Assembly: GCA_963675595.2 (NCBI GenBank)
Contig: CAXXLZ010000002.1
Span: forward strand, 4,224,001 to 4,288,000
DNA: 64,000 nucleotides
Source of the DNA: Thermodesulfobacteriota bacterium
GTDB taxonomy: Bacteria > Desulfobacterota > Desulfarculia > JACQYL01
Direction of reading: 5' to 3'
In this document: positions 45,337-64,000 of the stretch, in pieces
How the letters are laid out: every line of letters starts with the position of its first letter
Position numbering within the stretch: the stretch's first letter is position 1
Program-made: the position numbers and the translations under genes
Notes under the pieces: model-generated
Seen by the model: the letters and a program-made list of their open reading frames with translations, nothing else
The model's database searches: none
What the model was told of the DNA's origin: nothing

Positions 45337-47215
45337 TTGACGTGTGCAGCCATATCATCAGCCTGAAGATTTGCCTCTCTCCAGGGCCGTCCTAAGGGGC
45401 GAGGTCTCAAGGGATGTCACTGTGATTATCAGGCATGAATCCGGCGAGGAGCGTTGGGTTTCGGCGAACGCAGCCCCGATAGCCGATTCCGACGGGAGTA
45501 TTCGGGCCGGTATCGTGATCTTTCACGACATCACGGATCGTGTTCAGGCTGAAGCCGCTCTCAGGGAAAGTGAAGAGAGGTTTCGGACCCTCGTGGAAGA
45601 ATCTCCCCTAGCAATATCTTTAATAGCCAATGACGGCTGTTACAAATACGTAAACCCTCAGTTTCGGGAGACGTTCGGTTATACGATCGACGATGTCCCC
45701 ACCGGACGGGAATGGTTCAGGAAAGCCTTCCCTGACGAGACCTATCGGCGCCAAGTGGTCAAGACATGGGTCCAAGACCTGAAGCAAACCGGTATGGGAC
45801 AATCTAGACCACGTACCTACATTGTCACGTGTAAAGACGGATCCCGGAGAGAAATTTATTTCAGGCCGGTCACCATGCAGAACCTTGACCAGTTCGTGAT
45901 ATACGAGGACATCACCGAACGCAAGCGGGCCGAAGAGGAAAGGTTACGGCTTGAAGCCCAACTCCGTCAGGCGCAGAAAATGGAGGCACTCGGTACGCTG
46001 GCCGGGGGTATCGCGCATGACTTCAATAACATACTGGCGGCCATGATAGGCTACACCGAACTTGCGGTTGAAGGTCTTTCCAAAGGCTTGCCCGCAAGAG
46101 AACAACTGGCGCAAGTCTTGAAATCGGGAGATCGAGCCAAGGAATTGGTTCGCCAAATCCTGAGTTTCAGCAGAGCGACCGATCAGGAAAGGCGGCCCGC
46201 CGAAGTCCTTCCTATTGTGGAAGAAGCGCTGAAGCTGCTAAGAGCATCCATTCCCACCACCATTGATATAGAGCAGGAGGCGGAAGGGGTTTTAGGGACC
46301 GTGCTGGCGGACCCGACACAAATCCACCAACTGGTCATGAACCTGTGCACCAATGCCGCCCAAGCCATGCGAGATCGGGGGGGAGTCATGAGAGTGCGGC
46401 TTGAGAGGATCGAACTGGATGAGGATGCGGCGCGCAAATATGTCGAGTTAAGCCCGGGAGCGTATTTAAAGCTGAGCGTTACCGACACTGGAGAGGGTAT
46501 CGAGGAAAGCATACTGGATCGCATATTCGAGCCGTTTTTCACGACCAAAGAAACCGGACAAGGCACGGGTATGGGCCTTGCAGTAGTTCATGGGATCGTG
46601 AAAGCTCACTGCGGAAGCATAGAGGTGCAAAACAGGGCCGGTCGCGGCTGTACATTCTACGTTTACCTGCCGCTTTTTGAAAGCGAGGCGGAAAAGAGTG
46701 ATCCGCCGGAAACGATTCGTATCATAGCCGGCACTGGACATATCCTTTTCGTAGACGATGAAGAGTCCATAGCAGACTTGGGGAGGCAGATGTTGGAGCG
46801 ATTGGGCTACAAGGTCACCGCTTGCACCTCAAGTCGCCAGGCATTGGAAACGTTCAAAATCGACCCCACCCAGTTTGATATCGTGATCTCTGACCAGACC
46901 ATGCCACAAATGACCGGTTTGAGACTAGCCGGGGAGTTGATGAGCATAAAGCCGAATATACCTATTATCATCTGTACGGGTTACAGCACGGATATATCAC
47001 CCGAAAAAGCACAGGAATTCGGCGTTAGGCACGTCATAATGAAGCCCTATGCGTTCTGCGAGGTCGCCGCTTTGATCAGGAAAGTGATCGATGATAAGTC
47101 AGCAGGTTTTCCTTGAGCACGCGGATGAGGGACTAGGCTACATCCTCCCTTGCCCTCCGACTCTCGGACGAAAGAATAAGAACTCTCGTTTCCAGGAAAC
47201 CGATCACCTTAACCG

Positions 47216-47638
47216 TCAGAAGAAACCAAACAGCCCCCGGTCCTTCTTCTCCTGCATCGCGCCTCTGCGCTCTCTGGCCGACGCCGCGATGCCGGATAGC
47301 TGTTCCAATGACTTCCCGAACCTGCTCGAAAAGACCCAGCCTTCCCGGTAACCGTACCGCTTGTTGAAGCGGGAAACGTGGTCGATGAGCCCCATTCGCC
47401 GCATCTTGCTTCGGACGGTTTCGAGGATTCTCGGTGAGAAATCGTATTTGCCGCACAAAGGCTGAAGAGTGTTCAAGAATTCATGTTCAGCGTACTTGAG
47501 TTCGATGAAGATTGCGAGAAAAACTCGCTGATGGTTCTTGTTGGCTGGGAATAGGATAGCCGCGAGTTCATCCAGGTCCCGAGTCCTCGCGATCTTGTTA
47601 TGGCTGAGTTCGATTTTTGTGTTGACGATTGCGATCAC
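47216..47638 (-). CDS. Hypothetical protein, probable winged helix
   Basis: ETVRSKMRRMGLIDHVSRF...GWVFS pattern; overlaps the stop codon of the upstream gene. Start uncertain. Confidence 0.7.
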   Translation of the reverse strand: MIAIVNTKIELSHNKIARTRDLDELAAILFPANKNHQRVFLAIFIELKYAEHEFLNTLQPLCGKYDFSPRILETVRSKMRRMGLIDHVSRFNKRYGYREGWVFSSRFGKSLEQLSGIAASARERRGAMQEKKDRGLFGFF

Positions 47639-48006
47639 CTCGACCGGGCCAGGTGCTGGAGAACGACCGGCTTACCGTAACCATTCTCTTTCAGGGCTTT
47701 CTTCCTCAGTTCGACTCGTTGTTTTGCGATCTCAAGAGCCATCGTCCTGAGTTCTGTCCCCAATAGGCTCTCCACCCAATAGATGGTGGTGTATGCAGAA
47801 ACGTAGATATCTCCCAGAAGCCGTTGGAACCGCCACCTGATTCCCTGGCGGGAGAGTCCGAAGATCCGCTCAATCTTGTCGCCGTAATTTCTGCGCAAAA
47901 CGAACCGCTTCAGGCCGTCTTCCTTCAGCTCAATCTTGAGATCACTATCTTCGATCAACATCTTGAGCTTTTCAATAAATTCCTTGTCCTTTTCAGTCAG
48001 TTTCAT
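47635..48006 (-). CDS. Hypothetical protein, possible HTH
   Basis: KIERIFGLSRQGIRWRFQRL; overlaps both neighbouring genes. Confidence 0.7.
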   Translation of the reverse strand: MKLTEKDKEFIEKLKMLIEDSDLKIELKEDGLKRFVLRRNYGDKIERIFGLSRQGIRWRFQRLLGDIYVSAYTTIYWVESLLGTELRTMALEIAKQRVELRKKALKENGYGKPVVLQHLARSR

Positions 48007-48808
48007 AATAGGGCGGCTCGATTTCGATATCCGAGCCGTATTGTGTCACCTGCACTTCGCAATCCTGAAGCAGGAAAATCAGAGCCACAAATCGCATCGC
48101 CCGATCTCTCCGGGCATTATCGATCAGGGGGTCAATCCTGGAAAACATGATTTGTCGATACCTATGAACCGAATCCAGGATATGGCGTCTGTACCGGGAC
48201 AGCCCAGGAAGATTCCCAGTCAGGGAGAACTCCTCGCCCCAAACTCCCGCGTCAAAACCCATGAAACCCGACAATGCTTCAGTAAACCCGGGCAAACGAT
48301 CAAGCCGTGGTTCCTCCAGTAACGCCAACCCGCCCGACCGCCCTTCTCGACGGGCGAGCCTCATCATCTCTCTTCGCCTTCTTGCCTTGGCTCTCGATTC
48401 AGCCATTCGTTGCCGGAAATAAACCTTGTCGAAGACCCGTTCATCGAACAAGAACCGGGACGGCACGGTCTTCCCACAAGAAGCGCACGCATAATGAAGA
48501 CTCCGCCTGACCAGCTTCGCTCCGCAACAGCCGCTCCTTTGAAACACCACTGTGGGGTCCAGTTCATGGTCGCTCACACAGGCCGCCGAACCGGGTTCAA
48601 GCATCCGCAGGTTTTCGCCGCAAACAGGACACGGATGATTCGCCAGCATAACGTCATAGTAGTAGTCTCGGGCCGACGCCTTGTATTGAGCAACGCCGAA
48701 AACAAACTCCCCGATAATCCGGCCGAGGGCTTCCTCCGGCTCTTCCATGTCCAAAATTATCGCTGGGCGTTCGCTGTAGTGATCCGGCTCCAGGGTTTCG
48801 CATTCCAT
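47993..48808 (-). CDS. Zn-ribbon protein with ScpA/kleisin-like C-terminal winged helix
   Basis: CPVC, CVSDH, SGCCG, CASC; C-terminus RRDRAMRFVALIFLLQDCEVQVTQYGSDIEI. Confidence 0.65.
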   Translation of the reverse strand: MECETLEPDHYSERPAIILDMEEPEEALGRIIGEFVFGVAQYKASARDYYYDVMLANHPCPVCGENLRMLEPGSAACVSDHELDPTVVFQRSGCCGAKLVRRSLHYACASCGKTVPSRFLFDERVFDKVYFRQRMAESRAKARRRREMMRLARREGRSGGLALLEEPRLDRLPGFTEALSGFMGFDAGVWGEEFSLTGNLPGLSRYRRHILDSVHRYRQIMFSRIDPLIDNARRDRAMRFVALIFLLQDCEVQVTQYGSDIEIEPPYYETD

Positions 48809-48830
48809 CTATCGCGGAAAGCAAAGCATT

Positions 48831-48880
48831 GATATAAACCTTTCGCTCCCACGCCGCAGAATTCGGAAAAGTTTATATAC
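48831..48880. promoter_or_regulatory. Back-to-back archaeal-type BRE+TATA-like motifs
   Basis: Minus 48845-48831 CGAAAGG-TTTATATC with ATG 22 nt downstream; plus 48864-48880 CGGAAAAG-TTTATATAC. Confidence 0.55.
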
Positions 48881-48913
48881 ACCAGGGCCTTACCGAGTCC
48901 CGAGGTGATACCG

Positions 48914-49060
48914 ATGCCAAGACCCTATAAGTGCCCATATTGCGGCGCAACCCAAAGCCACTGGAAAGGATACAGGCCCCTTGCCCAGGGAAAAGTCAGA
49001 CTCCGGATGTGCACCAAGTGCCACCGGAAGTTCACGACTCGGGTTAAGATCGCCGAATAA
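48914..49060 (+). CDS. 48-aa zinc-ribbon protein (below the ORF-track cutoff)
   Basis: MPRPYKCPYCGATQSHWKGYRPLAQGKVRLRMCTKCHRKFTTRVKIAE; GAGGTGAT RBS at 48902-48909. Confidence 0.75.
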   Translation: MPRPYKCPYCGATQSHWKGYRPLAQGKVRLRMCTKCHRKFTTRVKIAE

Positions 49061-49075
49061 CCACCCGACGGACCT

Positions 49076-50350
49076 TCAATGAAGACCGCCGAACGACCCG
49101 GCACCAAATCCTTCTCTTGACAAGAACCGGCTGAGGGTTTCCTTGGGAAGCGATCTCGATATTTCTCTTGTCTGGCCGTACCTGCCGCGTGATATCAGCC
49201 TGGCGTTGATCAGTCCGTAGAGGTCAAGGGAACCGATAATGTCCGAGAACCTTCGTTGCGTCAGCGGCCTGACCCGTTCCAACTCGCAGAAATTGGCGTA
49301 TCGATCATAGGCCTCGCCTGTAGTGACCCGTTTCGAAGTCTTGGCCAACAGATCGTAGCAGGAAAGAAGCGCAAGTTTCTGCTGCGGCGCGAGAGCCCGA
49401 ACCATTTCTTCGGTCTTGTCCATCTCCAATCTGTGCTCAGCCAGATCCACGATTTCTTCGGACAGCCTGCCGCCGGTTTCCTGTGCCACTTTGGCCGACT
49501 TTGATAGAAGTTCCACCGCCTTCCTCGCATCACCGGTTTCCCGCGACGCCAGGGCCGCGATCTTTCGAACAGCAGCTTCGTCCACCTTTGACTTGTCCAA
49601 CGCCTTTTCCACCCGAAGATTCAGAATTTCGATCAAATCCAAGGCGTTATAGGGTTCAAAGAGCATGTCCGTCTTCTTGAGAACGCTCAGAATACGCGGA
49701 TCCAGCATCTTGTCCCAGTTCAGTTTGTTCGTGACCATAATGAGAACCAACCGGCAGGGAATCTTTCTCGGAAGGGTCTTTCCGAGGAAGGTAATAAACT
49801 CGTCCGCATTGGGCTTGATGTTATCCGCCTCATCAATCAGGAGGCACAAGAAACCCTGAAATCGGTTCAGCTCTTCGATGATGCGTTCCTGCATCTGATC
49901 AATGGGAATGCCTTTCCTGTAAGTACGAATCGATTCATTGAGTGCTCTTGCAAGTTCATTCAACGCTCCGAAAGAGGACCTGGGCGAGGTCAAGTCCACG
50001 TATCTGTACTGAAACCCGACGGACTGCGTTCGGCAATATTCCTGGAACGTCGAAAGGACGTGAATGAGGGAAACCGTTTTCCCTGAACCCGTAGGCCCGA
50101 AGATCAGCAGAGAACTCGGATGATCGCCGTCCAGGATCGGAGTCAGATGACAGACGATGCGCTTAAGCTGCTCCTCCCTGATATTCCGATCAAAAATCTC
50201 CTTCAGAACCGAAGTTCGCTCTTCCTCTGGCAACTTCTCGTCGTCCAGATAGTTGGGGTTCAAAATAAGGCGATGATTCTTCTGTGAGTCATGCAATGTG
50301 CGGATGAATTGCAAGGAAGCTTCGGAATGATCTCCACCGGACATTTTCAA
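49076..50350 (-). CDS. cdc6: Orc1/Cdc6-family replication initiator (AAA+ plus winged helix)
   Basis: Walker A GPTGSGKT, Walker B LLIDEAD, LDPRILS, FEPYNA, GDARKAVELL; C-terminal TTGEAYDRY...LTQRRFSDIIGSLDLYGLINARLISRGRYGQTREI. Confidence 0.9.
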   Translation of the reverse strand: MKMSGGDHSEASLQFIRTLHDSQKNHRLILNPNYLDDEKLPEEERTSVLKEIFDRNIREEQLKRIVCHLTPILDGDHPSSLLIFGPTGSGKTVSLIHVLSTFQEYCRTQSVGFQYRYVDLTSPRSSFGALNELARALNESIRTYRKGIPIDQMQERIIEELNRFQGFLCLLIDEADNIKPNADEFITFLGKTLPRKIPCRLVLIMVTNKLNWDKMLDPRILSVLKKTDMLFEPYNALDLIEILNLRVEKALDKSKVDEAAVRKIAALASRETGDARKAVELLSKSAKVAQETGGRLSEEIVDLAEHRLEMDKTEEMVRALAPQQKLALLSCYDLLAKTSKRVTTGEAYDRYANFCELERVRPLTQRRFSDIIGSLDLYGLINARLISRGRYGQTREISRSLPKETLSRFLSREGFGAGSFGGLH

Positions 50351-50370
50351 GCGATTCTTCTACAGGACAT

Positions 50371-50387
50371 CTATAAATAGTTTTCGG
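50371..50387 (-). promoter_or_regulatory. Archaeal-type BRE+TATA-like motif CCGAAAACTATTTATAG upstream of cdc6
   Basis: 16-mer identical to 9612-9627; 21-27 nt before the candidate starts. Confidence 0.55.
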
Positions 50388-50427
50388 TTAAATGCATTGT
50401 CGTCACCTGACAGTGAACCGGATGTTA

Positions 50428-50650
50428 AGTGTGGGAAAGTTTCTCGTGGAACTTTCAGTTTCAGTTTTTAGTGATGTTTTCTTTTCCTTATTATTATTTA
50501 TTTCTATATAGAAACTATATAATATAATATAAAAGCCGCGAAAATATAGAAAAGTTTTTAAATGAAAACACTTCAGAATAGTAACAAGAAACAAAAATAA
50601 CACACCCAACAAAAGGTTTTCAAGTTTTCCACGCGACATTTACACACACT
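50428..50650. other. Putative replication origin: AT-rich core flanked by inverted ORB-like boxes
   Basis: 24-bp imperfect inverted repeat (19/24 identical) at 50428-50451 and 50627-50650 around a very AT-rich 175-bp core, directly upstream of cdc6. Confidence 0.65.
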
Positions 50651-50861
50651 CTAAAAGCTGATTTTGAATCACTATTGAGTGACAACGTGGAGGCCATGAC
50701 GTCCCTCAAAGACCTCGATCACCGACGGTATTTCAAGAAAACCCGAAACAATCGGCCATTCGACAGTACAAGAGCCACGTTTCCACCGGAAATTTACTCG
50801 GGTTCCTGAAGCCATTCGGCGTCAATCCCTCCATTCCTCTGAGGAAATTTCCCATACCAAC

Positions 50862-51365
50862 CTACATCTCGTCCCAGCCGATATACTGAGCCGGACTTTC
50901 CCCCACCCTTTCGACGATCTTGGGATATTTTTCTCCCGGAGCCGCTTTTCCGATCTCGATCACCCGGATTTCGTGCCACCAATCATCTCCGAAATCGAAC
51001 CAATAGAAGAAGTGATCGCCCTCTTTCAGGTTCAGAGAGCCGATCTTGGTTCTTGAAACGTCTCCTGCAGGCGGAGGAGTTCCCATCAGGTCTCCCTCCA
51101 TTTCGATGGGCAGCACATACCTCGCCGCCTCGGGATCCTGCGGTATTTTGGAGAGCTGAAACTCGTAGAGGTGCTCGTCTTCACGATCAAAGGCTCTGAA
51201 GATCGCCCGGTGAAGCTGCCCCAGGGTATGCTTGCCTCGAACTTGAATGACACGGAATACCGCCGGGTTCTTTGCGATGAAGGTCTTGCTCATGGGTCCG
51301 TTTGCAATGGAGACCTTTAAAGCGTACAGATTTTCCGCCCGCTTTCCTCCGGAACTCGTCGCCAT
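50862..51365 (-). CDS. Plasmid pRiA4b ORF-3 family protein
   Basis: TLGQLHRAIFRAFD...HLYEF...FYWFDFGDDWWHEI...YPKIVERVGESPAQY. Confidence 0.85.
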   Translation of the reverse strand: MATSSGGKRAENLYALKVSIANGPMSKTFIAKNPAVFRVIQVRGKHTLGQLHRAIFRAFDREDEHLYEFQLSKIPQDPEAARYVLPIEMEGDLMGTPPPAGDVSRTKIGSLNLKEGDHFFYWFDFGDDWWHEIRVIEIGKAAPGEKYPKIVERVGESPAQYIGWDEM

Positions 51366-51465
51366 TCACTTCCTCCTTGGTGATCCGAACATCAAAAAAC
51401 TTATAAAGGAATGAACTTACCGGTATCCAACGGAATCGGCAAGAACCGATTCGGAGGTGCACACC

Positions 51466-51909
51466 ATGGCAATGGAAACAAATTCGGCCACATCCGGCAC
51501 ACCATCAAGCGGCTGTCCCACTTGGGACGGAATGGGCATATCCGGCGATCTGCCGCCCTTTTTCAAGCCCACCGAAGACATGAAACGAAACGGCTTCGAA
51601 GTGATCTTTCTGTCCGACGGTCCCAGGAGAGAGACCGAGAACAACTTCGACAAGAACTCGAAAGACCTCTGGTTCGATATCTCCTACCAGGACAAGGAAA
51701 TGACCTGGACCATCAGCCAGATCAGCCTGCTTTCCGAACTGAAGAAGCATTCACCGCTGAAGGAGAAGATCCTCAGGATACGCCTTGTTCCGGTGACCGA
51801 AGAATTCAGGAAAAAGCGGCCGAAGTACAGAGGCAGTGAGCGATACCAGGTTGAAGAAATCCGAGAAAACCGATTCGACAAGATCGACGTGGAAGAACTG
51901 ACGGTATAG
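51466..51909 (+). CDS. Hypothetical protein, possibly an OB-fold ssDNA-binding protein
   Basis: GGAGGTG RBS; beta-rich aromatic core (LWFDISY, MTWTISQ) and acidic tail; upstream CAAAAAA-CTTATAAAG. The ORF is well supported; the fold is speculative. Confidence 0.65.
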   Translation: MAMETNSATSGTPSSGCPTWDGMGISGDLPPFFKPTEDMKRNGFEVIFLSDGPRRETENNFDKNSKDLWFDISYQDKEMTWTISQISLLSELKKHSPLKEKILRIRLVPVTEEFRKKRPKYRGSERYQVEEIRENRFDKIDVEELTV

Positions 51910-52048
51910 ATATTCTTTCTTCTTTTTGTTTCAGCCGATCGGAGATAAGACGTGCGAAACAGACTCAAGTAATGGACGGAAGGAAAGACGGTCTGAACCG
52001 CCGACAGAACGAAAGCAGGCTGTAATCTCAGGGGACTTTATCTGAAGC

Positions 52049-52744
52049 TCAGCCCAAGGTCGTGAGACCATGGAGGATCGCGTATTTGGTCAACTGGGAC
52101 ATTCGCCTGGTTTTCAGCTTCTTCACAATATTCCTGCGGTGATTTTCCACCGTATTCACGCTGACACAGAGTATGGCCGCCATCTCCGCACTGGTCTTCC
52201 CCTCGGTCATACCCTGGAGAACTTCCTTTTCTCTCGAGGTCAACGAAGGAAGCGACCGGTGTCCGTTTCCATTGCCTAGCGCAAGCGCTTGAAACGCCTC
52301 AGTCATCGTTTCAGCGGATTTGCGGCAAAGATACATCCGGCCTTCGAGCACCGAACGAACAGCCGCGACCAGCTCATGCAATCCGCTTTGACTGAGCACA
52401 TACCCCATGGCCCCAGCGACGAGCATTTTGAACATGGGGTCCCATTCCGAATCCGGCGCGACTCCGACCACCCGGGTTTTTCGAAACCGATGCGTGATTT
52501 GGCGCGCGGTCTCGATACCGTTCAAACCCTTCATGGAAGTGTTCACGATCACCACGTCCGAGGGCGTATTGGACAGCAGTTTAAGTGCTTCATGACCTTC
52601 CAAAGCTTCACCCGAAACCTCGAAATCAGGAACAGAGCCCATCGCGTGCCGCAATCCTTCGAGAACCATCCTGTGGTTGTCCACCAGGAATATCCGCTTT
52701 TTCTCGAGTTCTTCCCTTGCTCCGCCTTGCCCCGGTTGCTCCAT
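52049..52744 (-). CDS. NarL/LuxR-family response regulator with atypical receiver
   Basis: LuxR HTH LTSREKEVLQ...VSVNTVENHRRNIVKKL; receiver has VDNH, IVNTSM, YVLSQ. Confidence 0.88.
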   Translation of the reverse strand: MEQPGQGGAREELEKKRIFLVDNHRMVLEGLRHAMGSVPDFEVSGEALEGHEALKLLSNTPSDVVIVNTSMKGLNGIETARQITHRFRKTRVVGVAPDSEWDPMFKMLVAGAMGYVLSQSGLHELVAAVRSVLEGRMYLCRKSAETMTEAFQALALGNGNGHRSLPSLTSREKEVLQGMTEGKTSAEMAAILCVSVNTVENHRRNIVKKLKTRRMSQLTKYAILHGLTTLG

Positions 52745-53417
52745 GATCACCCTCCGTAACAGACGATCCATTGTTCAATCGGAAATCCGGCAGAAGATAC
52801 CGAGACCTCCCGAAAGCAAAATGTTGGATTCAGAGAAAAAGCATCCTATAAAAAGATGAAACCGTGCGCAATCGTGATAATCATGAGGTTTTCTCATGAA
52901 ATTCATGAGTTAAATCTGTGGAAATCGCTAGACCAGCTAATGGATTTTATGATATGGAGCAGCGAAAAAAGAGGGGTGCAGGGCGGCCATCGGGTCAACC
53001 CATTACGATCTTTAGACTTTTGGGCGGGCATAGTCTCCGGAGAATGATAACACGGCCGTTACAACGTCGGACATGGACACGACGCGTGGGAAGAACAATC
53101 AAGATCCCTGCAGCGGGGGGATGAAAGCCGAGTCAATCGCAGGGAAATAGTTGATAGCCGCTCAAACCGTCCTATGAATGCAAACACCACCTTCGCCGTG
53201 GACATCTCCGCCGAAAGTGGATTCCGGTGTCGCGAGACTCTGAGACCGGCAGGTGCCCGGGACTACCCTCCGGTGAGCCTGTGCAAGGGAAGCTTCGAGC
53301 CTGCGAACGTGATCAATGACAGACCGCCAACGATCGGTCGGAACATTGGGCGGGTTCGGCGTTTTCGGGGGCGAGATGAAAGGCCTCTTCGCCCGTCTCC
53401 CTAAAGCCCGTTCCGCC

Positions 53418-53870
53418 TCATTTTGTTCCTTTTGAAAGCCTGATCGTTCGAGTAACCGTCTCGTGGGTATCATGGGAGATTCTTCCGTCGGCAAGCATCT
53501 CGTCGGCAAGGTCTTGTGCAGCGGCAAGATCAAGACGCCCGTCTTCAAGCCGATCCCGAAGCTCGTCCTTCATTTCCATGGCCTTTCCATCACGTCGTTT
53601 CAGGATTTGATGATCCTCGGAAAGATCGATCAGGCGATCCATCGACAGGTCCACGGAATCCAGGTCTTCTTCGAACTGCTCTCTTCCCTTCTCGGAGAGA
53701 TAGCGATGAAATTTGTCTTCCCATTCCGGCTGTGAGATGAGTCCTTTGTCGTAAAGGTCATCGTACACTTCGAACTTCCGGTCGGCGCTCAGCTCCTCGG
53801 CCTCCAAAGGCTCTTCCGGCTCAGTTTCGAAGGACAACAACTTCTTCCCCGCCTCCATGAACCAATCCAT
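53418..53870 (-). CDS. Acidic hypothetical protein
   Basis: ORF is open to 54014; GGAGGT RBS favours the ATG at 53870. Confidence 0.6.
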   Translation of the reverse strand: MDWFMEAGKKLLSFETEPEEPLEAEELSADRKFEVYDDLYDKGLISQPEWEDKFHRYLSEKGREQFEEDLDSVDLSMDRLIDLSEDHQILKRRDGKAMEMKDELRDRLEDGRLDLAAAQDLADEMLADGRISHDTHETVTRTIRLSKGTK

Positions 53871-54085
53871 GAGGCCCTCGACCTCCTGATCTTCCTCAAC
53901 AGAATCACAATCGAATTCCTCTTCCCCTCGTTCCCAATCCTTTCTCACGGCAAACCTCCCTTTTCCAATAGAAGTGCTCGGAAAGAAATTTTCGTGTTTT
54001 GATTTTTTTCCCACACGTTTTCGATCGAGGGATCACTGGAGGAGTAAGGCAGGACGAAAACCACCCCAAACAAAAGGAGAAAGCC

Positions 54086-54277
54086 ATGAGATTTTCACGT
54101 CACCCCTTCACTGGAATGCTTCAGGTGGACTTCGGGCTTCCGCTTAGAAGAGACGATTTCAATCTGATTCACGATGTCAACGGAAAGACTGTCAGAAGGA
54201 TAGACGACTTCAACTTGGTTAAGGATACGCTCGACCGAACCGTCGAAATATGGAAGCCCAAAATGTACAATGACTGA
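54086..54277 (+). CDS. Small hypothetical protein with internal DDFNL repeat
   Basis: AAGGAG RBS; RRDDFNLIHD and RIDDFNLVKD. Confidence 0.6.
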   Translation: MRFSRHPFTGMLQVDFGLPLRRDDFNLIHDVNGKTVRRIDDFNLVKDTLDRTVEIWKPKMYND

Positions 54278-54348
54278 TCCCGCTTTAAAAACTGGTCGCA
54301 GCTTCCGCCGATAATTCTATCTCGGCATGAGATAACCGCTCCCTTACC

Positions 54349-54366
54349 GAGCCCCTTCGGGGGCTC
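54349..54366 (+). terminator. GC hairpin with C(UUCG)G loop, possible terminator
   Basis: GAGCCCC-TTCG-GGGGCTC; weak U tract. Confidence 0.35.
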
Positions 54367-54797
54367 ATCTTCATTTCCTTCCAGCCAAAATTCCCACAAG
54401 CCCTGTCGCGGAATAGCTTCGCTTTCGAGACGTCTCGTATCAGCTTCCCTGTCCTTGTTAATCGAGCCGTACCTGAAGAAACCGGTCGGTCGTCCACCGC
54501 AAAATGGTCAAGGTGTATAACGATCTCAGCGGCGTTGAAAAAAGGCGGCATTCGCGGGATATTGGGGGTGCTCAGGAAAACTTCGAACCTTCAAGCCAAC
54601 ACAAGCCTGCCGACTGCCGTCATAAAGGCCCCGCAGAGCCCCTGTTTGAGAAAGATGCCGCATAATATCGGAGGACCCAAGTTGAAGCTTTTCGTAATGG
54701 CTTACAAACCCATCGCTCTAGTCAATGACACTGATGATATACTGACAAAGTCGTATAACCTTTTTTCATCGGATAGGTAGCATTAAGGAGAATAAAA

Positions 54798-55685
54798 GTG
54801 TCCCTATTCACCATACTCAATAATATAGTCAATCACCCTTTTAACAAATACAATAAGGCTGCGGCGATAGCCATATTTGTAGGTTGGCAAATCGGTAGCA
54901 GATTAGTTCCAGGTGATGTTATTTTTGAATGGGTAAATAATTCCAAACTTGTGGCCAGAACAGGTGAAATTGTTGTTACCGGTAATATTTACTGTGGTCT
55001 TCTTGAATTTCAAGATATGGGTTTCTTGCTTCACGTTTTGAGAGAAAGAGATATTTTTGTTGATATTGGAGCTAATGTTGGAGCCTACACTATTCTGGCA
55101 AGTGCAGCTATTGGTGCAAGCTCCTATTGCTTTGAACCAGTCCCATCAACATACCGTAGGCTAATGACAAATATTAGGCTAAACGCATTAGATAAAAAAG
55201 TTATTTCATTAAATATGGCACTTGGAAATGCAAGAAAACAATTGCTATTTTCTTCAGATGAAAGTGGCACCAGCCATGTCTTGGCAGATAATGAGAAAAC
55301 TAAGAACGAAATTACTGTAAATTGTTCCACTCTTGATGAGGAGCTGAAAGGTGACCCATTTCTAATAAAGATTGATGTGGAAGGATATGAAACTCCAGTA
55401 CTGGAAGGTGCACAACATTCACTTAAGAATCCCAATCTTTGTGGAGTGATTATTGAATTGAACGATTCAGGACAAAGATACGGTTTTGATGAACAAACGA
55501 TATTGCAAATGATGTTTGATCATGGATTTAAAACCTATTCATATTGTCCTTTTGAAAGAAAGCTAAGAATTTTGGGAGGTAAGAACGAATATGAAGGGAA
55601 TACAATTTTTGTAAAGAATATCGATCGCGTCCTAAATAGAATCAATAAAGCTCCAAAGTTTGCTGTTCATGGGGTGTCAATATAG
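54798..55685 (+). CDS. FkbM-family SAM-dependent methyltransferase (AT-rich cargo)
   Basis: FVDIGANVGAYT, FEPVP, LIKIDVEGYE. Confidence 0.9.
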   Translation: MSLFTILNNIVNHPFNKYNKAAAIAIFVGWQIGSRLVPGDVIFEWVNNSKLVARTGEIVVTGNIYCGLLEFQDMGFLLHVLRERDIFVDIGANVGAYTILASAAIGASSYCFEPVPSTYRRLMTNIRLNALDKKVISLNMALGNARKQLLFSSDESGTSHVLADNEKTKNEITVNCSTLDEELKGDPFLIKIDVEGYETPVLEGAQHSLKNPNLCGVIIELNDSGQRYGFDEQTILQMMFDHGFKTYSYCPFERKLRILGGKNEYEGNTIFVKNIDRVLNRINKAPKFAVHGVSI

Positions 55686-55807
55686 GTGGATGCATAATCA
55701 AATTAGCTCTACCAGGACTTTAAGGCTTTACGAAGAGGGCAGTGCTCAACTTTAAATCGTGCCGCCCGGTAATTACGGGACGTCGACCATTCCTCCTCCG
55801 ACGACAA

Positions 55808-55999
55808 TTAGAATTCCCGAAGGTCTCCAACGTCGTTCGCAGGCCGGCGTTCTGCTCGATCCGGTCGGTGCAAGGAATTCCGCTCCGAACTCTGCCTGCA
55901 CCAGAACAAATGGGCGTTACCGCGCTTCCGTTCCCGCCACCAGTCCGAAAGGGTCTCATCTTCCTCAAAAGGATGCGTAATCCGAAGTTCCTGTTTCAT
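55808..55999 (-). CDS. Short hypothetical protein, possibly a degraded backbone gene
   Basis: ATG 22 nt after CGACAGG-TTTAAATA (56036-56022). Confidence 0.4.
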   Translation of the reverse strand: MKQELRITHPFEEDETLSDWWRERKRGNAHLFWCRQSSERNSLHRPDRAERRPANDVGDLREF

Positions 56000-56072
56000 G
56001 GCCACCATTACGGCACGGTGGTATTTAAACCTGTCGAAAAGGGCTCACGAAGAGCCCTCTTCCAACCTACAC

Positions 56073-56945
56073 TCAATCCAGAACGATCTTTCTCCGCGGC
56101 TGGTTTATCAGTTCCCGCACTTGGTCATGCACGGAAGCCATCGCTTCGCGAATCCGGTTCTTGAGGTAACCGCTTTCGCGAATGGACTCGGGCGACCTTC
56201 CGTCGAGCACCGACTCCGCCTGCTGCACGAGTTCCGCCAAGCCATTGTCGTCAAAGACGTTTCTTTGCTTGAAGTGTTCGAAGAACTCGTAGAAGTTCGT
56301 CACCGTCGTTCCTTTGAACTTCTTTGCTTCACCGTCCGGCCCGATACTGAAGCGCTCGCAGATATGCCCGACAAGGTCAGCGAACTCCTCTCGAAGACTC
56401 TGCACGGCAAGCTCACGAGCCTCTTCCATGGTTTGGATGAATTTTCGCTTTTCGCGCTCATACACTTCCGGCGCCAGGAGACCGAACCTGCCGTTGGGGA
56501 CATCAAGAGCCACAAACCGCCACTCGAATGAAAACCGCCTATGAATATCCACGGGGTAGTCCTGCTCATTGAACAGGTCACCGAGGTAGGCAATGGCAGA
56601 GTCCCTGAGCGCCGGATATCGTGAAGCAAAATCGTTGACGAGGTAGCCGAACTCAGATTGAAGCTCCCGCAACTTCTCGTCCACCTCAGTAATCAAGTCT
56701 TTCGGCACGAACATCATGCCGTGGATGGGAAAGGGCAGACTGACCGATGTGAGGTAGAGCCGGGAATTGCCGGCCAACTTCGCAATGGGTTTCAGGCTTT
56801 CCGGGTCCACGAGCTTTTTCGTTGCATGAAGCCATTCGTGGTTGCTGGTCATTTGAGCGAGTTTTCCCTGATCGATCTTTCTTCTCGCTCCCCACATGCT
56901 GATGGAGAGTTGCACCAGGCATCCTTTTTCGAAAATGTTTTCCAT
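56073..56945 (-). CDS. DUF3150-like protein
   Basis: LVQLSISMWGARRK...ATKKLVDP...SLPFPIHG; GAAAGGAG RBS. Confidence 0.72.
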   Translation of the reverse strand: MENIFEKGCLVQLSISMWGARRKIDQGKLAQMTSNHEWLHATKKLVDPESLKPIAKLAGNSRLYLTSVSLPFPIHGMMFVPKDLITEVDEKLRELQSEFGYLVNDFASRYPALRDSAIAYLGDLFNEQDYPVDIHRRFSFEWRFVALDVPNGRFGLLAPEVYEREKRKFIQTMEEARELAVQSLREEFADLVGHICERFSIGPDGEAKKFKGTTVTNFYEFFEHFKQRNVFDDNGLAELVQQAESVLDGRSPESIRESGYLKNRIREAMASVHDQVRELINQPRRKIVLD

Positions 56946-56962
56946 CGCCGTCTCCTTTCAGA

Positions 56963-57001
56963 GAAAAGAAAACCCCGATCTCCGACTAACGGAAACCGGG
57001 G
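56963..57001 (-). terminator. Intrinsic terminator
   Basis: CCCCGGTTTCCG-TTAGT-CGGAGATCGGGG followed by TTTTCTTTTC. Confidence 0.6.
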
Positions 57002-57037
57002 CATGCGTTGATTTGTGGTTACAGTGTCGGCGGAAGG

Positions 57038-57238
57038 TCAGCCGCAAAGAGGCAGATACTTCTTAACCGACTCCTTCTCCTCCTGGTAATAGGCCGGTGT
57101 AAGTTCCCGCAAAGTTTCCGCTCCGAGAACCTCTTTCAGGAATTTCGATTCCTCGATACAAGCCTTGCCCTTGAACCCTCTGGTTTCGAGCTTGATCTCG
57201 CCATCCATGGATACTTCCACAATGATTTCCTTCATCAC
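57038..57238 (-). CDS. DUF2997-family protein
   Basis: IIVEVSMDGEIKLETRGFKGKAC...LTPAYYQ. Confidence 0.8.
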   Translation of the reverse strand: MMKEIIVEVSMDGEIKLETRGFKGKACIEESKFLKEVLGAETLRELTPAYYQEEKESVKKYLPLCG

Positions 57239-57244
57239 AGCCTC

Positions 57245-57616
57245 CTACATCCGGACGTGGAGCCGGATTGCATTTTCGGTTTTCTTTTCGATCACCGTGT
57301 AGCCTTTACGCCGCGCTTCGGTCCGGGTCTTCTCCACCGCATAGGCCTGCTTCAACAGTCCTCCGTTTACGCCGATTGCTTTTTCCACGTTAGGGTCGTA
57401 GAAGTCGCACTGAAGTTCATACCTGTCATCCATCCTCTGAACGCCGATTTCATAATCCGCACCGGGCAATCGAATGGCATGCTCGCACGCGGCGTTGTTT
57501 CCGTACCACCGGAACTCTTTCCTGCCTTCGAGGAAAATCAGACCCAGCCGATTACACGCAGACTTCAGGACAGCGAGGTCCTTTACTTCGAGTTCGATTT
57601 TGACGATATGACTCAT
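57245..57616 (-). CDS. DUF1257 (Ycf35-like) protein
   Basis: MSHIVKIELEVKDLAVLKSACNRLG...YEIGV...LLKQAYA...GYTV. Confidence 0.8.
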   Translation of the reverse strand: MSHIVKIELEVKDLAVLKSACNRLGLIFLEGRKEFRWYGNNAACEHAIRLPGADYEIGVQRMDDRYELQCDFYDPNVEKAIGVNGGLLKQAYAVEKTRTEARRKGYTVIEKKTENAIRLHVRM

Positions 57617-60600
57617 CGTATCCTCCGGATCGTTCTGATAGGTTCTTCGTCCCTTCGGCTCGCTCTCCTCGCCCGATTCTCAGCCCAATCCCGGAGCGCT
57701 GAGAGCTGCTCCTTCATGGTTTTGGAAAGCGGAACAATGGTTTCACGGGCGTTTTCCAGGCCATCGAACAGCGAATCCTTGGCCAGCTGCTCGATCTCAG
57801 CGCCTGTCCATTCAGTGAGTTCAGCTGCATACTCGGAAGGTATTTCCGAACCGTATCGTTGATTCATGATTTCGATGATGGCTTCGCGCTCGCTTCTGTT
57901 CGGGATATCCACAAAGAACAGGGCATCAAACCTCCCCGATCGCAGAAACTCAGGCGGAAGCCCCGAGATATCATTGGCGGTTGCCATGACCAGAATCGGA
58001 CTGGTAGTCTCTTGAAGCCACAAGAGCAGATGGCCGAACATGGACGAGGTGGTACCGCCGTCCGTCGCCCCCGAACTTTTGACCCCGGACAGCACGTAGG
58101 GTAGGCAGCGGCCCTCCTGCAGAAGCAGGCTAAGCCGCCACCCCCCTCCGAACCGTACGTGCGGCTTTCACCGCATACGGCTCTCTACTTACACTTACCT
58201 GGAAATCTCAGGTCAGGCAGAGTCCCGTCATGGAGTTGCCGATGGCAGTGAACGCACAAGACCAGGGTTTTCCGATTGCGTTCACGCATCAGCTCTTTCC
58301 ATGGTTCGTTGCCATCAGCAACGGCACTCATACTCCCGGCGTGGTGCACCTCAAAGTAGCCGCCTGCACGCCCGCAGAACTCGCATTTCTGAGCCCTCAA
58401 ACGAGAAAGGATATCAGAGTACGTGGCCCGATACTTCTTTGTATTGGGTACACTGTCGAGATTCTGCAACAGGGAAGAGCGGTAAAATTTGAGGTCCTTC
58501 AACCTGAAGAGCCGAGTGGTGCGTAATTTCCCATGGTACCATTCGGTAATAGCGTATTCCCCCGGTTCAACCTTCAGACGCCTCCTCACTGTTCTCTTGC
58601 TGCAGCGGTGTTTTCGGGCAAATGTTCTCGTCAAACTTCGGAACCAGACGGACTGCAGTTTCTGCAATGCCCGAACTGCCCCTTGAGCGAGAACATAGTA
58701 ATTGGCAAAGCCCCTCAACTCCGCGTTGTAAATCGTGAGGATTTGTGTATCCATTAGGTTGACCAAGTTAAGTCGGGGCATGACTTCAAAGTTCTCATAG
58801 TTGCCATATCCGTTCTTCTTGCAGAACGCCGCCATCTTATCGCTTGGGACTTTAAGCTGGATTCGACCAGCCCCAAGCCTCCTGGTCGTGTAGGTCCCGC
58901 CAAGTTTTACCTTGACCGATTTTCCCACCGGGTAGGTTGTGATGTCATACCCGAGGAAGCGCGTTTCCTCAGTACAATGACGGAGGCCTGATTTCTCTTC
59001 GGAGATCTGCAGGCGCAAATGTTCTTGGACAAAACCACGAACAGTCTGCATGACCTGCCTGCAATCCTCCTTGGAGCCGATCATGCCGATGAGAAAATCA
59101 TCGGCGTACCGGATATACATCAGTCTCTTGTAACCTTCGTCATGGAAATCCAAGGAAGGGACTAAACGTCGCATCCTGCAATGTTCCCGAAGTTCGGCTT
59201 CTATTTCTTTGAGCTTTTCGGTCTCCCCAGCCTGCTGAGCCCGGGCGAACCTTATCCTTTGACGACGGACCAGATACTGATAGCGGAGATACTCTTCGTT
59301 CCGGCGTCTTCGCTTTCCCTTGTTGAATTCCTGAACCAGACTTTCCATGAACTCGTCGAGCTCATGAAGGTAAATATTGGCTAGGATCGGGGAAATAATT
59401 CCACCTTGAGGAGTTCCACTATACGTGGCATGGTATTTCCAATCATCAATATAGCCGGCCTTAAGCATGGCCTTGATGAGATTGATGAAACGCCTGTCGT
59501 CAATCCGTTTCTCCAACAGTCTTATCAACACCTTATGGTCGATATTGTCGAAGAAACCCCGGATATCCATGTCGATGATCCACTTAACGCCGGTCCAGTA
59601 TTTCTGAAGATACCGCAAAGCGGTATGACACGATCTTTCCGGACGAAATCCATGCGAGCGATCAGAAAAGATCGGCTCGTAGATTCGTTCCAGAATCGCT
59701 CGTGTCACTTCCTGGATCAGCTTGTCATCTCCGGAAGGTATGCCCAAGGGTCGCAACTTACCGTTGGCCTTGGGGATGTAAACGCGTTTTGATGGTTTGA
59801 ACTTGTAACGACCGTCTTTGAGCAGCTTAATAATGTTCTTTGCCCGCTCATCGGAAAAGCCGTCCAGGGTCACGCCGTCCACGCCCTTCGTCATAGCACC
59901 TTTGTTTGAATAGATATTGGCGTAGGCGTCTTCCCATAAAGTCGGGTTTTCCATGAGCCGAAATAGGCCGTTAACACGTTTCCCCTGCTTGGAGAGTTTT
60001 CCAAGAGCGTTCAACCTCTTGATGGTCGTAGCGGACAGCATCAGCACATCCTCCTTTCAGAGTGTTGAACACGTTGCATAAGCTGTCTTCCTTCCCCCGG
60101 ATAGAGGACCCTTCGTCGATGTCGCCACCGACTTATAGCCATATCCGTATCCCGCAATTGCGAGATCTGCAGAACCCATTACAGGCCCACCTTGGGTACT
60201 ATGAAGACTCCGTCGCCATACAGGTCCGAGCCGTGTGCTCGTGACCAGCTTAGGCGATCCCGCATTTACGCCAGATCAAAGATTCGCCGTGGTTAGGTCT
60301 CCCGTTCGTCCCTTTTATCCTTCTCGTCGAAGGCATGCCGGACAGACGGAATATGCAGGTCGAAAAGTGGGCCTACATACAGTCCGGACTGGCGTTTCAG
60401 CTACTTTCACCAGTGCCCGAGCTACGGCCATGAGGACTGGGGTTCAAGCAGTTTAGCCTTGACCATACACGGCTTACGCTGACATCATCGTTGGTCGTAG
60501 CTACCTTCTTTGATGCCTTTTCCCAACATGCTGCACTCCCCCCTCCCTTTCGGGACAAGGACCATTGCTGGTCAGAGATAAGTTGGGTGCGTACAGGATA

Positions 60601-63600
60601 TTTCCGTAATCTTGGTGACTTCCGTCACACTCCTATCTGGCGCCAATACGGCGCACGTAGGGTAGGCAGCGGCCCTCCTGCAGAAGCAGGCTAAGCCGCC
60701 ACCCCCCTCCGAACCGTACGTGCGGCTTTCACCGCATACGGCTCTCTACTTACACTTACCTGGAAATCTCAGGTCAGGCAGAGTCCCGTCATGGAGTTGC
60801 CGATGGCAGTGAACGCACAAGACCAGGGTTTTCCGATTGCGTTCACGCATCAGCTCTTTCCATGGTTCGTTGCCATCAGCAACGGCACTCATACTCCCGG
60901 CGTGGTGCACCTCAAAGTAGCCGCCTGCACGCCCGCAGAACTCGCATTTCTGAGCCCTCAAACGAGAAAGGATATCAGAGTACGTGGCCCGATACTTCTT
61001 TGTATTGGGTACACTGTCGAGATTCTGCAACAGGGAAGAGCGGTAAAATTTGAGGTCCTTCAACCTGAAGAGCCGAGTGGTGCGTAATTTCCCATGGTAC
61101 CATTCGGTAATAGCGTATTCCCCCGGTTCAACCTTCAGACGCCTCCTCACTGTTCTCTTGCTGCAGCGGTGTTTTCGGGCGAATGTTCTCGTCAAACTTC
61201 GGAACCAGACGGACTGCAGTTTCTGCAATGCCCGAACTGCCCCTTGAGCGAGAACATAGTAATTGGCAAAGCCCCTCAACTCCGCGTTGTAAATCGTGAG
61301 GATTTGTGTATCCATTAGGTTGACCAAGTTAAGTCGGGGCATGACTTCAAAGTTCTCATAGTTGCCATATCCGTTCTTCTTGCAGAACGCCGCCATCTTA
61401 TCGCTTGGGACTTTAAGCTGGATTCGACCAGCCCCAAGCCTCCTGGTCGTGTAGGTCCCGCCAAGTTTTACCTTGACCGATTTTCCCACCGGGTAGGTTG
61501 TGATGTCATACCCGAGGAAGCGCGTTTCCTCAGTACAATGACGGAGGCCTGATTTCTCTTCGGAGATCTGCAGGCGCAAATGTTCTTGGACAAAACCACG
61601 AACAGTCTGCATGACCTGCCTGCAATCCTCCTTGGAGCCGATCATGCCGATGAGAAAATCATCGGCGTACCGGATATACATCAGTCTCTTGTAACCTTCG
61701 TCATGGAAATCCAAGGAAGGGACTAAACGTCGCATCCTGCAATGTTCCCGAAGTTCGGCTTCTATTTCTTTGAGCTTTTCGGTCTCCCCAGCCTGCTGAG
61801 CCCGGGCGAACCTTATCCTTTGACGACGGACCAGATACTGATAGCGGAGATACTCTTCGTTCCGGCGTCTTCGCTTTCCCTTGTTGAATTCCTGAACCAG
61901 ACTTTCCATGAACTCGTCGAGCTCATGAAGGTAAATATTGGCTAGGATCGGGGAAATAATTCCACCTTGAGGAGTTCCACTATACGTGGCATGGTATTTC
62001 CAATCATCAATATAGCCGGCCTTAAGCATGGCCTTGATGAGATTGATGAAACGCCTGTCGTCAATCCGTTTCTCCAACAGTCTTATCAACACCTTATGGT
62101 CGATATTGTCGAAGAAACCCCGGATATCCATGTCGATGATCCACTTAACGCCGGTCCAGTATTTCTGAAGATACCGCAAAGCGGTATGACACGATCTTTC
62201 CGGACGAAATCCATGCGAGCGATCAGAAAAGATCGGCTCGTAGATTCGTTCCAGAATCGCTCGTGTCACTTCCTGGATCAGCTTGTCATCTCCGGAAGGT
62301 ATGCCCAAGGGTCGCAACTTACCGTTGGCCTTGGGGATGTAAACGCGTTTTGATGGTTTGAACTTGTAACGACCGTCTTTGAGCAGCTTAATAATGTTCT
62401 TTGCCCGCTCATCGGAAAAGCCGTCCAGGGTCACGCCGTCCACGCCCTTCGTCATAGCACCTTTGTTTGAATAGATATTGGCGTAGGCGTCTTCCCATAA
62501 AGTCGGGTTTTCCATGAGCCGAAATAGGCCGTTAACACGTTTCCCCTGCTTGGAGAGTTTTCCAAGAGCGTTCAACCTCTTGATGGTCGTAGCGGACAGC
62601 ATCAGCACATCCTCCTTTCAGAGTGTTGAACACGTTGCATAAGCTGTCTTCCTTCCCCCGGATAGAGGACCCTTCGTCGATGTCGCCACCGACTTATAGC
62701 CATATCCGTATCCCGCAATTGCGAGATCTGCAGAACCCATTACAGGCCCACCTTGGGTACTATGAAGACTCCGTCGCCATACAGGTCCGAGCCGTGTGCT
62801 CGTGACCAGCTTAGGCGATCCCGCATTTACGCCAGATCAAAGATTCGCCGTGGTTAGGTCTCCCGTTCGTCCCTTTTATCCTTCTCGTCGAAGGCATGCC
62901 GGACAGACGGAATATGCAGGTCGAAAAGTGGGCCTACATACAGTCCGGACTGGCGTTTCAGCTACTTTCACCAGTGCCCGAGCTACGGCCATGAGGACTG
63001 GGGTTCAAGCAGTTTAGCCTTGACCATACACGGCTTACGCTGACATCATCGTTGGTCGTAGCTACCTTCTTTGATGCCTTTTCCCAACATGCTGCACTCC
63101 CCCCTCCCTTTCGGGACAAGGACCATTGCTGGTCAGAGATAAGTTGGGTGCGTACAGGATATTTCCGTAATCTTGGTGACTTCCGTCACACTCCTATCTG
63201 GCGCCAATACGGCGCACCTTCTCGAGTTCATCGCACCAGATCACCGCTTTCCCGAAAGCATCAATCGTTGCAGTAGCTTGCCTCATCTTACGTTCGCTCT
63301 CTCCGACGAGAGAACCTTTCAAAGCGGACAAATCCAACCGGATGAGCGGCCATCCGAGGATCGAAGCGGCTGCTTTGCAGGAGAGCGATTTCCCGCAGCC
63401 CGGCACCCCTACCAAAAGTAACGCCTTGGGCCTCGGCAGATGCTCGTTTCCAGGCTCGAAGGCTTTCTTTCGGTTGTTGATGTACTCCTTCAGGAGATCG
63501 AGGCCTCCGACTTCCTCGATGGACACCGGCGGCCAGAACTCCATCAGTCCCGTGCGTTTGATCATCTGCTTTTTCTGCTCGGTAACGATCTCCCTGCAGA

Positions 63601-64000
63601 ACCGTTTTCGTTCCACCAAGGACCTGGCAAACGCGGTCTCAGCCTCGAACTCGGTAAGTCCCAGGGCGGCTTCCACAGCCTCCACGTCGGCTTCGATCCC
63701 CACGCTCTCCCCAAGCTCTTCCTGAATCCTGCGAAGCTCCTCAAGCCCCGGAAGTTCAAAGTCCAGCATGGTGAAATACTTTTCCAGCTCCGCCGGCAGG
63801 CTTACCTGAGGCCCAACCAAGACCAGACAACATCCTTGGCCTTTCCAGGAGGGCAGGCTGTTCTGGATTTCCTGGATGATATCCACGGAACCTAAAGAGT
63901 GGTGGAAGTTGTGCACGAAGAGCACGGTGTCCTCTTTTCCCGAGAGCCACTTGAGACTGCTCAATGGATCACTGGAATCGTCGTTTCGCATGCCGGACTG
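57613..64000 (-). CDS. Ycf46-like AAA+ ATPase (exons >64000-63218 and 58095-57613; 5' end probably outside window)
   Basis: GVPGCGKS; Walker B WCDELEK|VLSG joins in frame after both introns are removed; ATAN...LPPEFLRSGRFD. Confidence 0.9.
58096..60656 (-). mobile_element. Group II intron, downstream copy (2561 nt)
   Basis: 5' GTGCG, domain V GAGCCGTATGCGGTGAAAGCCGCACGTACGGTTC, 3' ...CCCTAC. Confidence 0.95.
58185..60047 (-). CDS. ltrA: Group II intron-encoded RT/maturase/HNH endonuclease (LtrA-like)
   Basis: LRPLGIP, GTPQGG, RYADD, C-terminal CEFC...EVHH...CVHCH. Confidence 0.95.
   Translation of the reverse strand: MLMLSATTIKRLNALGKLSKQGKRVNGLFRLMENPTLWEDAYANIYSNKGAMTKGVDGVTLDGFSDERAKNIIKLLKDGRYKFKPSKRVYIPKANGKLRPLGIPSGDDKLIQEVTRAILERIYEPIFSDRSHGFRPERSCHTALRYLQKYWTGVKWIIDMDIRGFFDNIDHKVLIRLLEKRIDDRRFINLIKAMLKAGYIDDWKYHATYSGTPQGGIISPILANIYLHELDEFMESLVQEFNKGKRRRRNEEYLRYQYLVRRQRIRFARAQQAGETEKLKEIEAELREHCRMRRLVPSLDFHDEGYKRLMYIRYADDFLIGMIGSKEDCRQVMQTVRGFVQEHLRLQISEEKSGLRHCTEETRFLGYDITTYPVGKSVKVKLGGTYTTRRLGAGRIQLKVPSDKMAAFCKKNGYGNYENFEVMPRLNLVNLMDTQILTIYNAELRGFANYYVLAQGAVRALQKLQSVWFRSLTRTFARKHRCSKRTVRRRLKVEPGEYAITEWYHGKLRTTRLFRLKDLKFYRSSLLQNLDSVPNTKKYRATYSDILSRLRAQKCEFCGRAGGYFEVHHAGSMSAVADGNEPWKELMRERNRKTLVLCVHCHRQLHDGTLPDLRFPGKCK
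60657..63217 (-). mobile_element. Group II intron, upstream copy (2561 nt)
   Basis: Same termini as the other copy; its 3' AC abuts that copy's GTGCG directly. Confidence 0.95.
60746..62608 (-). CDS. ltrA: Group II intron-encoded RT/maturase/HNH endonuclease, same protein sequence as 58185-60047
   Basis: Identical 620-aa translation in the ORF track. Confidence 0.95.
   Translation of the reverse strand: MLMLSATTIKRLNALGKLSKQGKRVNGLFRLMENPTLWEDAYANIYSNKGAMTKGVDGVTLDGFSDERAKNIIKLLKDGRYKFKPSKRVYIPKANGKLRPLGIPSGDDKLIQEVTRAILERIYEPIFSDRSHGFRPERSCHTALRYLQKYWTGVKWIIDMDIRGFFDNIDHKVLIRLLEKRIDDRRFINLIKAMLKAGYIDDWKYHATYSGTPQGGIISPILANIYLHELDEFMESLVQEFNKGKRRRRNEEYLRYQYLVRRQRIRFARAQQAGETEKLKEIEAELREHCRMRRLVPSLDFHDEGYKRLMYIRYADDFLIGMIGSKEDCRQVMQTVRGFVQEHLRLQISEEKSGLRHCTEETRFLGYDITTYPVGKSVKVKLGGTYTTRRLGAGRIQLKVPSDKMAAFCKKNGYGNYENFEVMPRLNLVNLMDTQILTIYNAELRGFANYYVLAQGAVRALQKLQSVWFRSLTRTFARKHRCSKRTVRRRLKVEPGEYAITEWYHGKLRTTRLFRLKDLKFYRSSLLQNLDSVPNTKKYRATYSDILSRLRAQKCEFCGRAGGYFEVHHAGSMSAVADGNEPWKELMRERNRKTLVLCVHCHRQLHDGTLPDLRFPGKCK

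Follow-up and report, generated by a model that had tools for sequence, protein, structure and literature searches.

The 64,000-nt stretch analysed here (the window; C2:4224001-4288000) belongs to the 6.79-Mb, three-contig genome of a Thermodesulfobacteriota bacterium (assembly GCA_963675595.2). Near its high-coordinate end, on the minus strand, a gene for an AAA+ ATPase is interrupted by two complete group II introns, each 2561 nt, which occupy 58096-60656 and 60657-63217 and directly abut one another. In the order of transcription the features are as follows, all on the minus strand.

Outside the window (equivalent of position 64141), minus: start of the exon 1 open reading frame (ORF)
63218..64000, minus: exon 1 of the AAA+ ATPase gene, with Walker A GVPGCGKS and Walker B VIWCDE, ending ...ELEK (Pfam AAA, alignment)
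63218..63223, minus: intron-binding site 1 (IBS1), GAGAAG, the last six bases of exon 1 (GAAAAG in three paralogues)
60657..63217, minus: upstream intron copy, 2561 nt, C at intron position 2037; the newer insertion under the re-homing model discussed below
62923..62928, minus: exon-binding site 1 (EBS1) of the upstream copy, CUUUUC, intron positions 290-295, in the 12-nt hairpin loop CCCACUUUUCGA
60746..62608, minus: upstream copy ORF for the intron-encoded protein (IEP), 620 aa, with reverse transcriptase (RT; YADD), maturase/X and HNH endonuclease domains
60657..60746, minus: domains V-VI of the upstream copy, whose 3' splice site ...CCCTAC adjoins the next intron
60653..60660, minus: intron-intron junction CTAC/GTGC, between 60657 and 60656, without a spacer
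58096..60656, minus: downstream intron copy, 2561 nt, T at intron position 2037; the resident, older copy under the re-homing model
60362..60367, minus: EBS1 of the downstream copy
58185..60047, minus: downstream copy IEP ORF, its protein identical to that of the upstream copy
58620, minus: the single difference between the copies (A; 61181 is G, on the plus strand), codon 476 TTT/TTC
58096..58185, minus: domains V-VI of the downstream copy
57613..58095, minus: exon 2 of the ATPase gene, starting GTGCTG (VLSGVKSSG...), with the half of the AAA domain that contains sensor and arginine finger

On the minus strand the exon 1-intron junction reads ...CTCGAGAAG/GTGCGCCG, the intron-intron junction ...CCTACCCTAC/GTGCGCCG (CCCTAC/GTGCG) and the intron-exon 2 junction ...CCTACCCTAC/GTGCTGTCC. 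Both copies have GTGCG...CCCTAC ends, in agreement with the group II consensus (5' GUGYG, 3' AY), and the Rfam model RF00029 (domains V-VI) matches the last 90 nt of each over its full length (73.4 bits, gathering score 40); the alignment shows the CCUACCC strand. The repeat overruns its unit by 4 nt on the low-coordinate side (GTGC, the start of exon 2 on the minus strand) and by 0 nt on the other. Each copy encodes the same 620-aa protein, with RVT_1 (1.2e-37), Intron_maturas2 (2e-09) and AI2M-like HNH (7.8e-11) domains and legible YADD and CxxC/HH motifs. Base-by-base comparison of the copies revealed a sole mismatch, that at 58620/61181, which leaves codon 476 as Phe and is synonymous. The contig around the pair measures 4.73 Mb, its nearer end being about 443 kb away, and in a k-mer scan the pair proved to be the longest exact tandem of the genome, far beyond chance. 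An earlier note, made from the letters alone, had described two head-to-tail introns of this length without a spacer, one synonymous difference between them, and an exon 2 start that mimics the intron 5' end. Direct comparison together with RF00029 at both 3' ends bears out the first, full comparison the second, and the GTGC common to exon 2 and intron at +1 to +4 the third.

The splice junction was examined against homologues of the host protein. Exon 1 matches positions 1-67 of the Pfam AAA profile and exon 2 positions 75-130. A protein search with exon 1 found 204 relatives at E<=1e-10, and 10 of the 120 listed were aligned together with both exons. Six of these 10 are uninterrupted homologues of 414-438 aa, reading ...W(L/M)DE(V/I)(E/D)K-xFxGVKSSG..., and the end of exon 1 (...VIWCDELEK, with the Walker B pattern hhhhDE) and the start of exon 2 (VLSGVKSSG) fit all six with zero gap. 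The ELEK/VLSG joint, and the earlier placement of the insertion right after Walker B, are therefore correct. The intron pair is in phase 0, three codons past the Walker B DE, dividing the ATPase active site between the exons. Several exon 1 homologues from other sources (P0002, P0003, P0005 and P0007) break soon past Walker B or about 20 residues on (...MFGH, then unrelated residues), which suggests frequent interruption of genes of this family by insertions near this point.

Copies of the intron and of its target in the genome

There are five full-length copies of the intron in the genome, the tandem pair and three singles, all at the equivalent position of paralogous ATPase genes in which exon 1 ends GAAAAG or GAGAAG and exon 2 starts GTGCTGTCCGG. 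When the genome was searched with exon 1 and with exon 2, four close ATPase paralogues were found at E<=1e-95, the remainder being distant AAA proteins only. All four cognate sites are occupied, and no empty site is left in the genome.

Homology between the blocks that carry the paralogues extends for about 11 kb on the downstream side and for 7 kb or more on the upstream side, at 88-95% identity, whereas the introns differ among themselves by at most one base. Near-identical introns in blocks so diverged therefore most likely entered after the islands diverged, by homing. To judge from these near-identical copies at four homologous sites, the intron is probably mobile in this genome. At intron position 2037, C is found in the upstream copy and in the single at C2:1643189, and T in the downstream copy and the two other singles. 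Since both alleles recur in other copies, the difference within the pair is a polymorphism among copies and not a sequencing error; the pattern is as would be expected had the two copies been inserted separately, each from a different donor.

Intron class and target recognition

The IEP aligns with LtrA, the protein of Ll.LtrB, over residues 26-605 of its 620 (E 5.6e-127), and with the maturase-RT chain of 6me0, which we take to be an IIB intron protein, at 2.1e-37. All structural tests that could be run identify the element as a group II intron. By its protein it is LtrB-like and would be placed in the mitochondrial-like lineage, IIA-type. The Rfam D1-D4 families gave no match under permissive thresholds, and hence no Rfam-based subclass. 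Its nearest relatives, labelled Desulfamplus and 'Deltaproteobacteria' metagenome-assembled genomes, show 77% and 62% protein identity.

EBS1 (CUUUUC) pairs at six of six positions with GAAAAG, and likewise at six of six, one of them G-U, with the GAGAAG of the window. The stem of its hairpin covaries in three related introns while the loop changes along with the 5' exon, as in UUUUUC opposite GAAAAA (L025) and UUGGCC opposite GGUCAG (L026). In all three relatives delta, the base 5' of EBS1, pairs with +1 (A:U in L025, U:A in L026 and U:A in L027), which is the IIA mode of reading the 3' exon. As regards EBS2, nothing of at least 5 nt in intron positions 150-330 complements -15 to -7. The candidates at 76-80, 452-456 and 224-227 were rejected for want of covariation, and that at 267-271 (AGUCC) because it overlaps a covarying stem. 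Of the mapping of domain I onto exon 1 that the earlier note had proposed, the EBS1 half gave CUUUUC in a covarying hairpin loop, and for EBS2 no confident position emerged.

The occupied exon 1-intron boundary presents the same exon 1, the same +1 G and the same +1 to +4 (GTGC) as an empty site, so that the contention that IBS is intact and +1 to +4 unchanged after the first insertion is sound. Whether the site is empty or occupied, the base opposite delta is the same G, and recognition at the RNA level is therefore unchanged.

Origin of the tandem

Because the occupied boundary keeps both IBS1 and GTGC, a second retrohoming event into the occupied exon 1-intron site is the best reading of the tandem, and we give it a probability of about 0.65. 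We infer the insertion event, its mode of priming and the order of splicing as follows. First, retrohoming would have carried the intron into one and the same position in each of the four paralogous AAA+ ATPase genes. Once every site was filled, the intron ribonucleoprotein would have reverse-spliced again, at one occupied site and precisely between exon 1 and the resident intron, making the new copy the upstream one. Insertion at the intron-exon 2 boundary was considered and rejected, the intron 3' end (...CCCTAC) being unlike IBS1. The upstream copy would splice normally, for it has an adjacent IBS and, as its 3' exon, a second intron that begins with G. Its removal would leave an ordinary exon 1-intron-exon 2 precursor, and a second round of splicing would give ELEK/VLSG. 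Alternatively, the core of the downstream copy might use the distant exon 1, in which case both introns would leave as one lariat. Re-homing of the intron into its own boundary had been put forward in the earlier note. It is supported by the EBS1-IBS1 pairing, the shared GTGC, the occupation of 4/4 sites and the alleles held in common with other copies; its mechanism is inferred from sequence. The ordered double splicing proposed with it would work, as removal of the upstream copy should restore a normal single-intron precursor.

The closest precedent is EcKTE56.groEL, an IIB1 intron of E. coli for which tandem integration exactly at the exon-intron boundary has been shown experimentally (Mob DNA 2025, PMC12584367). 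There, tandems make up 22.4% of ORF-deleted integrants, 4.2% of wild-type ones and about 3% of reads with the intron, and the authors attribute them to base pairing between EBS3 and the resident intron's first G (PMC12584367). In both systems the second copy has the 5' exon on one side and the resident intron's first base on the other, giving an intron 3' end/GTGCG junction; in the present pair both copies are complete and in the same orientation, and the occupied boundary keeps IBS1 and +1. In EcKTE56.groEL the intron's first G replaces the target +1, whereas here +1 is natively G and the identity covers +1 to +4. The experimental case comes from plasmid-driven assays in E. coli; its IIB1 intron is located at the groEL stop codon and relies on EBS3-IBS3, a U-G wobble. 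The present pair, in contrast, is genome-resident, full-length, HNH-bearing and LtrA-like, and is located inside a reading frame.

With Ll.LtrB/LtrA of Lactococcus lactis the intron has in common the RT, X and HNH domains, an EBS1 in a hairpin loop and a host gene on a mobile island; it differs in target gene and EBS sequences and in that delta is unpaired at its sites. The nested twintrons of Euglena plastids, Thermosynechococcus elongatus, Methanosarcina acetivorans and Trichodesmium likewise place several group II introns at one locus through homing and imply ordered splicing, as far as the accessible accounts of them go. They are, however, introns inside introns, while the present copies lie side by side, each uninterrupted over 2561 nt and matching the three singles end to end. 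A side-by-side layout is found in the group I 'twintrons' of fungal mitochondria (Hypomyces aurantius cox3, Ophiostoma ips), for which the accessible part of the source proposes a ratchet in which the upstream module splices first (PMC8393795). According to the same part, those are group I introns with different modules, as opposed to two copies of one group II retroelement. The word 'tandem' is absent from a 2015 review (PMC4424553) in the text available to us, and full-text literature searches, supplements aside, turned up no account of a natural head-to-tail pair formed by one group II intron inside a coding gene of a bacterium.

Several observations weigh against re-homing. Delta, A289 (window 60368 and 62929), stands opposite a +1 G and is unpaired at every site of the intron in the genome; the intron may have colonised a non-optimal family of sites. 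EBS2 was not placed with confidence. From +5 to +10, exon 2 and the intron 5' end no longer agree. We take it that bottom-strand cleavage by LtrA needs 3'-exon contacts such as T+5. If the protein of the present intron needs +5 to +10 in the same way, endonuclease-primed insertion at the occupied site would be inefficient. Priming there may then rely on the strands of the replication fork, a route which a review, in its accessible part, describes for endonuclease-less introns (PMC4424553). The junction with its unique flanks is known at the level of assembled contigs and not of reads. A 19-nt family-wide version of the junction motif occurred in 0/400 other genomes of the phylum, and a tandem in 0/21 related intron loci, many of which are short contigs. 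Finally, the same assembly contains two other exact tandems, of unrelated multi-copy insertion sequences (ISs) with periods of 1883 and 1397 nt, each in the form element-short repeat-element. The three doublings in one assembly may have a common technical or other general cause.

These last tandems are also what lends weight to the view that the pair is an artefact of assembly or polishing, the true locus holding one intron and the assembler having threaded a multi-copy repeat twice. Exact doubling in this assembly affects three multi-copy mobile elements of different kinds (the intron, an IS of ~1.88 kb and an IS of ~1.39 kb), and they are the only kb-scale exact tandems found in the scan. 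Among the contigs listed from four of 12 public runs, searched with the repeat-free, junction-centred segment 59377-61936 (three runs gave contigs), none bridges 60656/60657. Those contigs go from the intron ends into exon or stop, and as assemblies break or choose paths at repeats they are uninformative either way. The junction is, however, base-precise at the splice sites, which naive joining of contig ends would not yield because the flanking sequence held in common beyond the intron measures 11 nt towards exon 2 and 3 nt towards exon 1. A contig-end artefact in particular is rejected by the internal position of the locus, ~443 kb from the end. The two copies, moreover, hold different alleles present elsewhere in the genome, whereas one true copy would give the same base twice, and diverged natural tandems exist in other data. 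We therefore regard the tandem as real, known here from assembled sequence, and consider an artefact unlikely, although it has to be reckoned with.

The tandem could also have arisen without the intron machinery, by slippage or unequal exchange between 4-bp GTGC repeats that duplicated an 'intron + GTGC' unit. The repeat does extend 4 nt (GTGC) past the unit, and the IS tandems share the form short repeat-element-short repeat-element-short repeat. Yet 4-bp repeats separated by 2.5 kb offer a very poor substrate, and with countless other 4-bp pairs at hand the exact intron ends would hardly be hit upon. Every kb-scale tandem found is a mobile element, none an ordinary segment, and copies so made would start identical and need an extra conversion event to acquire the shared-allele difference, all of which renders such an origin very improbable. 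Scarcely to be expected is Campbell-type integration, in which a head-to-tail circular intron DNA recombined with the resident copy to give a precise tandem. Its product would have an identical structure, and two metagenome contigs (L063 and L067), each a circularly permuted intron-sized unit, are compatible with circles as well as with tandems. The data examined contain no sign of double-stranded intron DNA circles, and two rare steps would be needed in place of the one demonstrated step that re-homing takes.

Read as the product of re-homing, the pair is a natural example of a route shown in the laboratory and not a new kind of element. It would be a genomic example from nature of a reaction known to date from one laboratory system, in a different, endonuclease-bearing LtrB-like class, with site saturation and then self-boundary insertion both visible within one genome. 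Removal of both copies is needed for the product of the host reading frame. The locus is a simple system for the study of ordered splicing and of the balance between array growth and recombinational loss. Tentatively, and with less assurance than we attach to the event at this locus, re-homing into the intron's own 5' boundary could be a general overflow route at saturated sites. It would lead to growing arrays, even in coding genes, that iterative 'ratchet' splicing removes. Such arrays might be common in nature and almost undescribed because short-read assemblies collapse them. On the practical side, exact doublings of mobile elements in long-read assemblies call for read-level checks before interpretation.

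Other arrays, the island and further repeats

The exact 28-nt junction had no match elsewhere among metagenome contigs. Its 19-nt family-wide version had eight (L061-L068), in each of which an intron 3' end is followed directly by an intron 5' end. In L061 an exon is followed by a 683-nt ORF-less intron and a second copy 94% identical to it; L062 contains two ~698-nt units (90.5% identity); and L065, a palindromic contig, has two 706-nt units (97.5% identity) behind the 3' end of a third intron. The circularly permuted unit of L063 and L067 is ~2.45 kb. Units as diverged as those of L061, L062 and L065 cannot be assembly doublings, and head-to-tail arrays therefore occur naturally. Among 60 relatives, neither the intron nor its junction was found (0/60), the only matches being domain V-like ones of 35-48 nt in 8/60.

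The two IS tandems lie outside the window, at C2:3852916-3856689 (L070) and C2:2114155-2116947 (L071), each exactly doubled head to tail. The IS of ~1.88 kb encodes a 569-aa transposase and is present in ~21 copies, that of ~1.39 kb a 383-aa transposase in ~14 copies. Both tandems are laid out as a short flank repeat, IS, the same repeat, IS and the same repeat again, the repeat being CAATACTT in one and a C-rich stretch of ~12 nt in the other. The target preferences of these ISs are roughly CAANNTTG and C/G-run-rich sites, so that re-insertion into a regenerated target is possible for ISs too. Their doublings reflect either such re-insertion or a shared technical cause.

The ATPase gene forms part of a four-copy island of ~18-26 kb, which in the window covers about 47200-64000 and continues beyond it (L060), with paralogues at C2:913088, C1:1429482 and C2:1643189. 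Its genes encode RadC, a HerA/DUF87-type ATPase, a PD-(D/E)XK nuclease, DUF1257 and DUF3150 proteins, a Cdc6/Orc-like AAA protein and a pRiA4 ORF3-like protein, and by this content the block looks like a plasmid- or integrative and conjugative element-like genomic island. Within a region otherwise belonging to the downstream block of the island, on the opposite strand (window 54798-55685, plus), is an FkbM-type methyltransferase gene. Seven identical 53-nt matches with 83% identity to the RT-coding part of the intron were located at C3:13158, C2:3246356, C2:1402181, C2:1198380, C2:730613, C2:199632 and C2:172015, and they indicate that the genome has a further multi-copy element bearing an RT.

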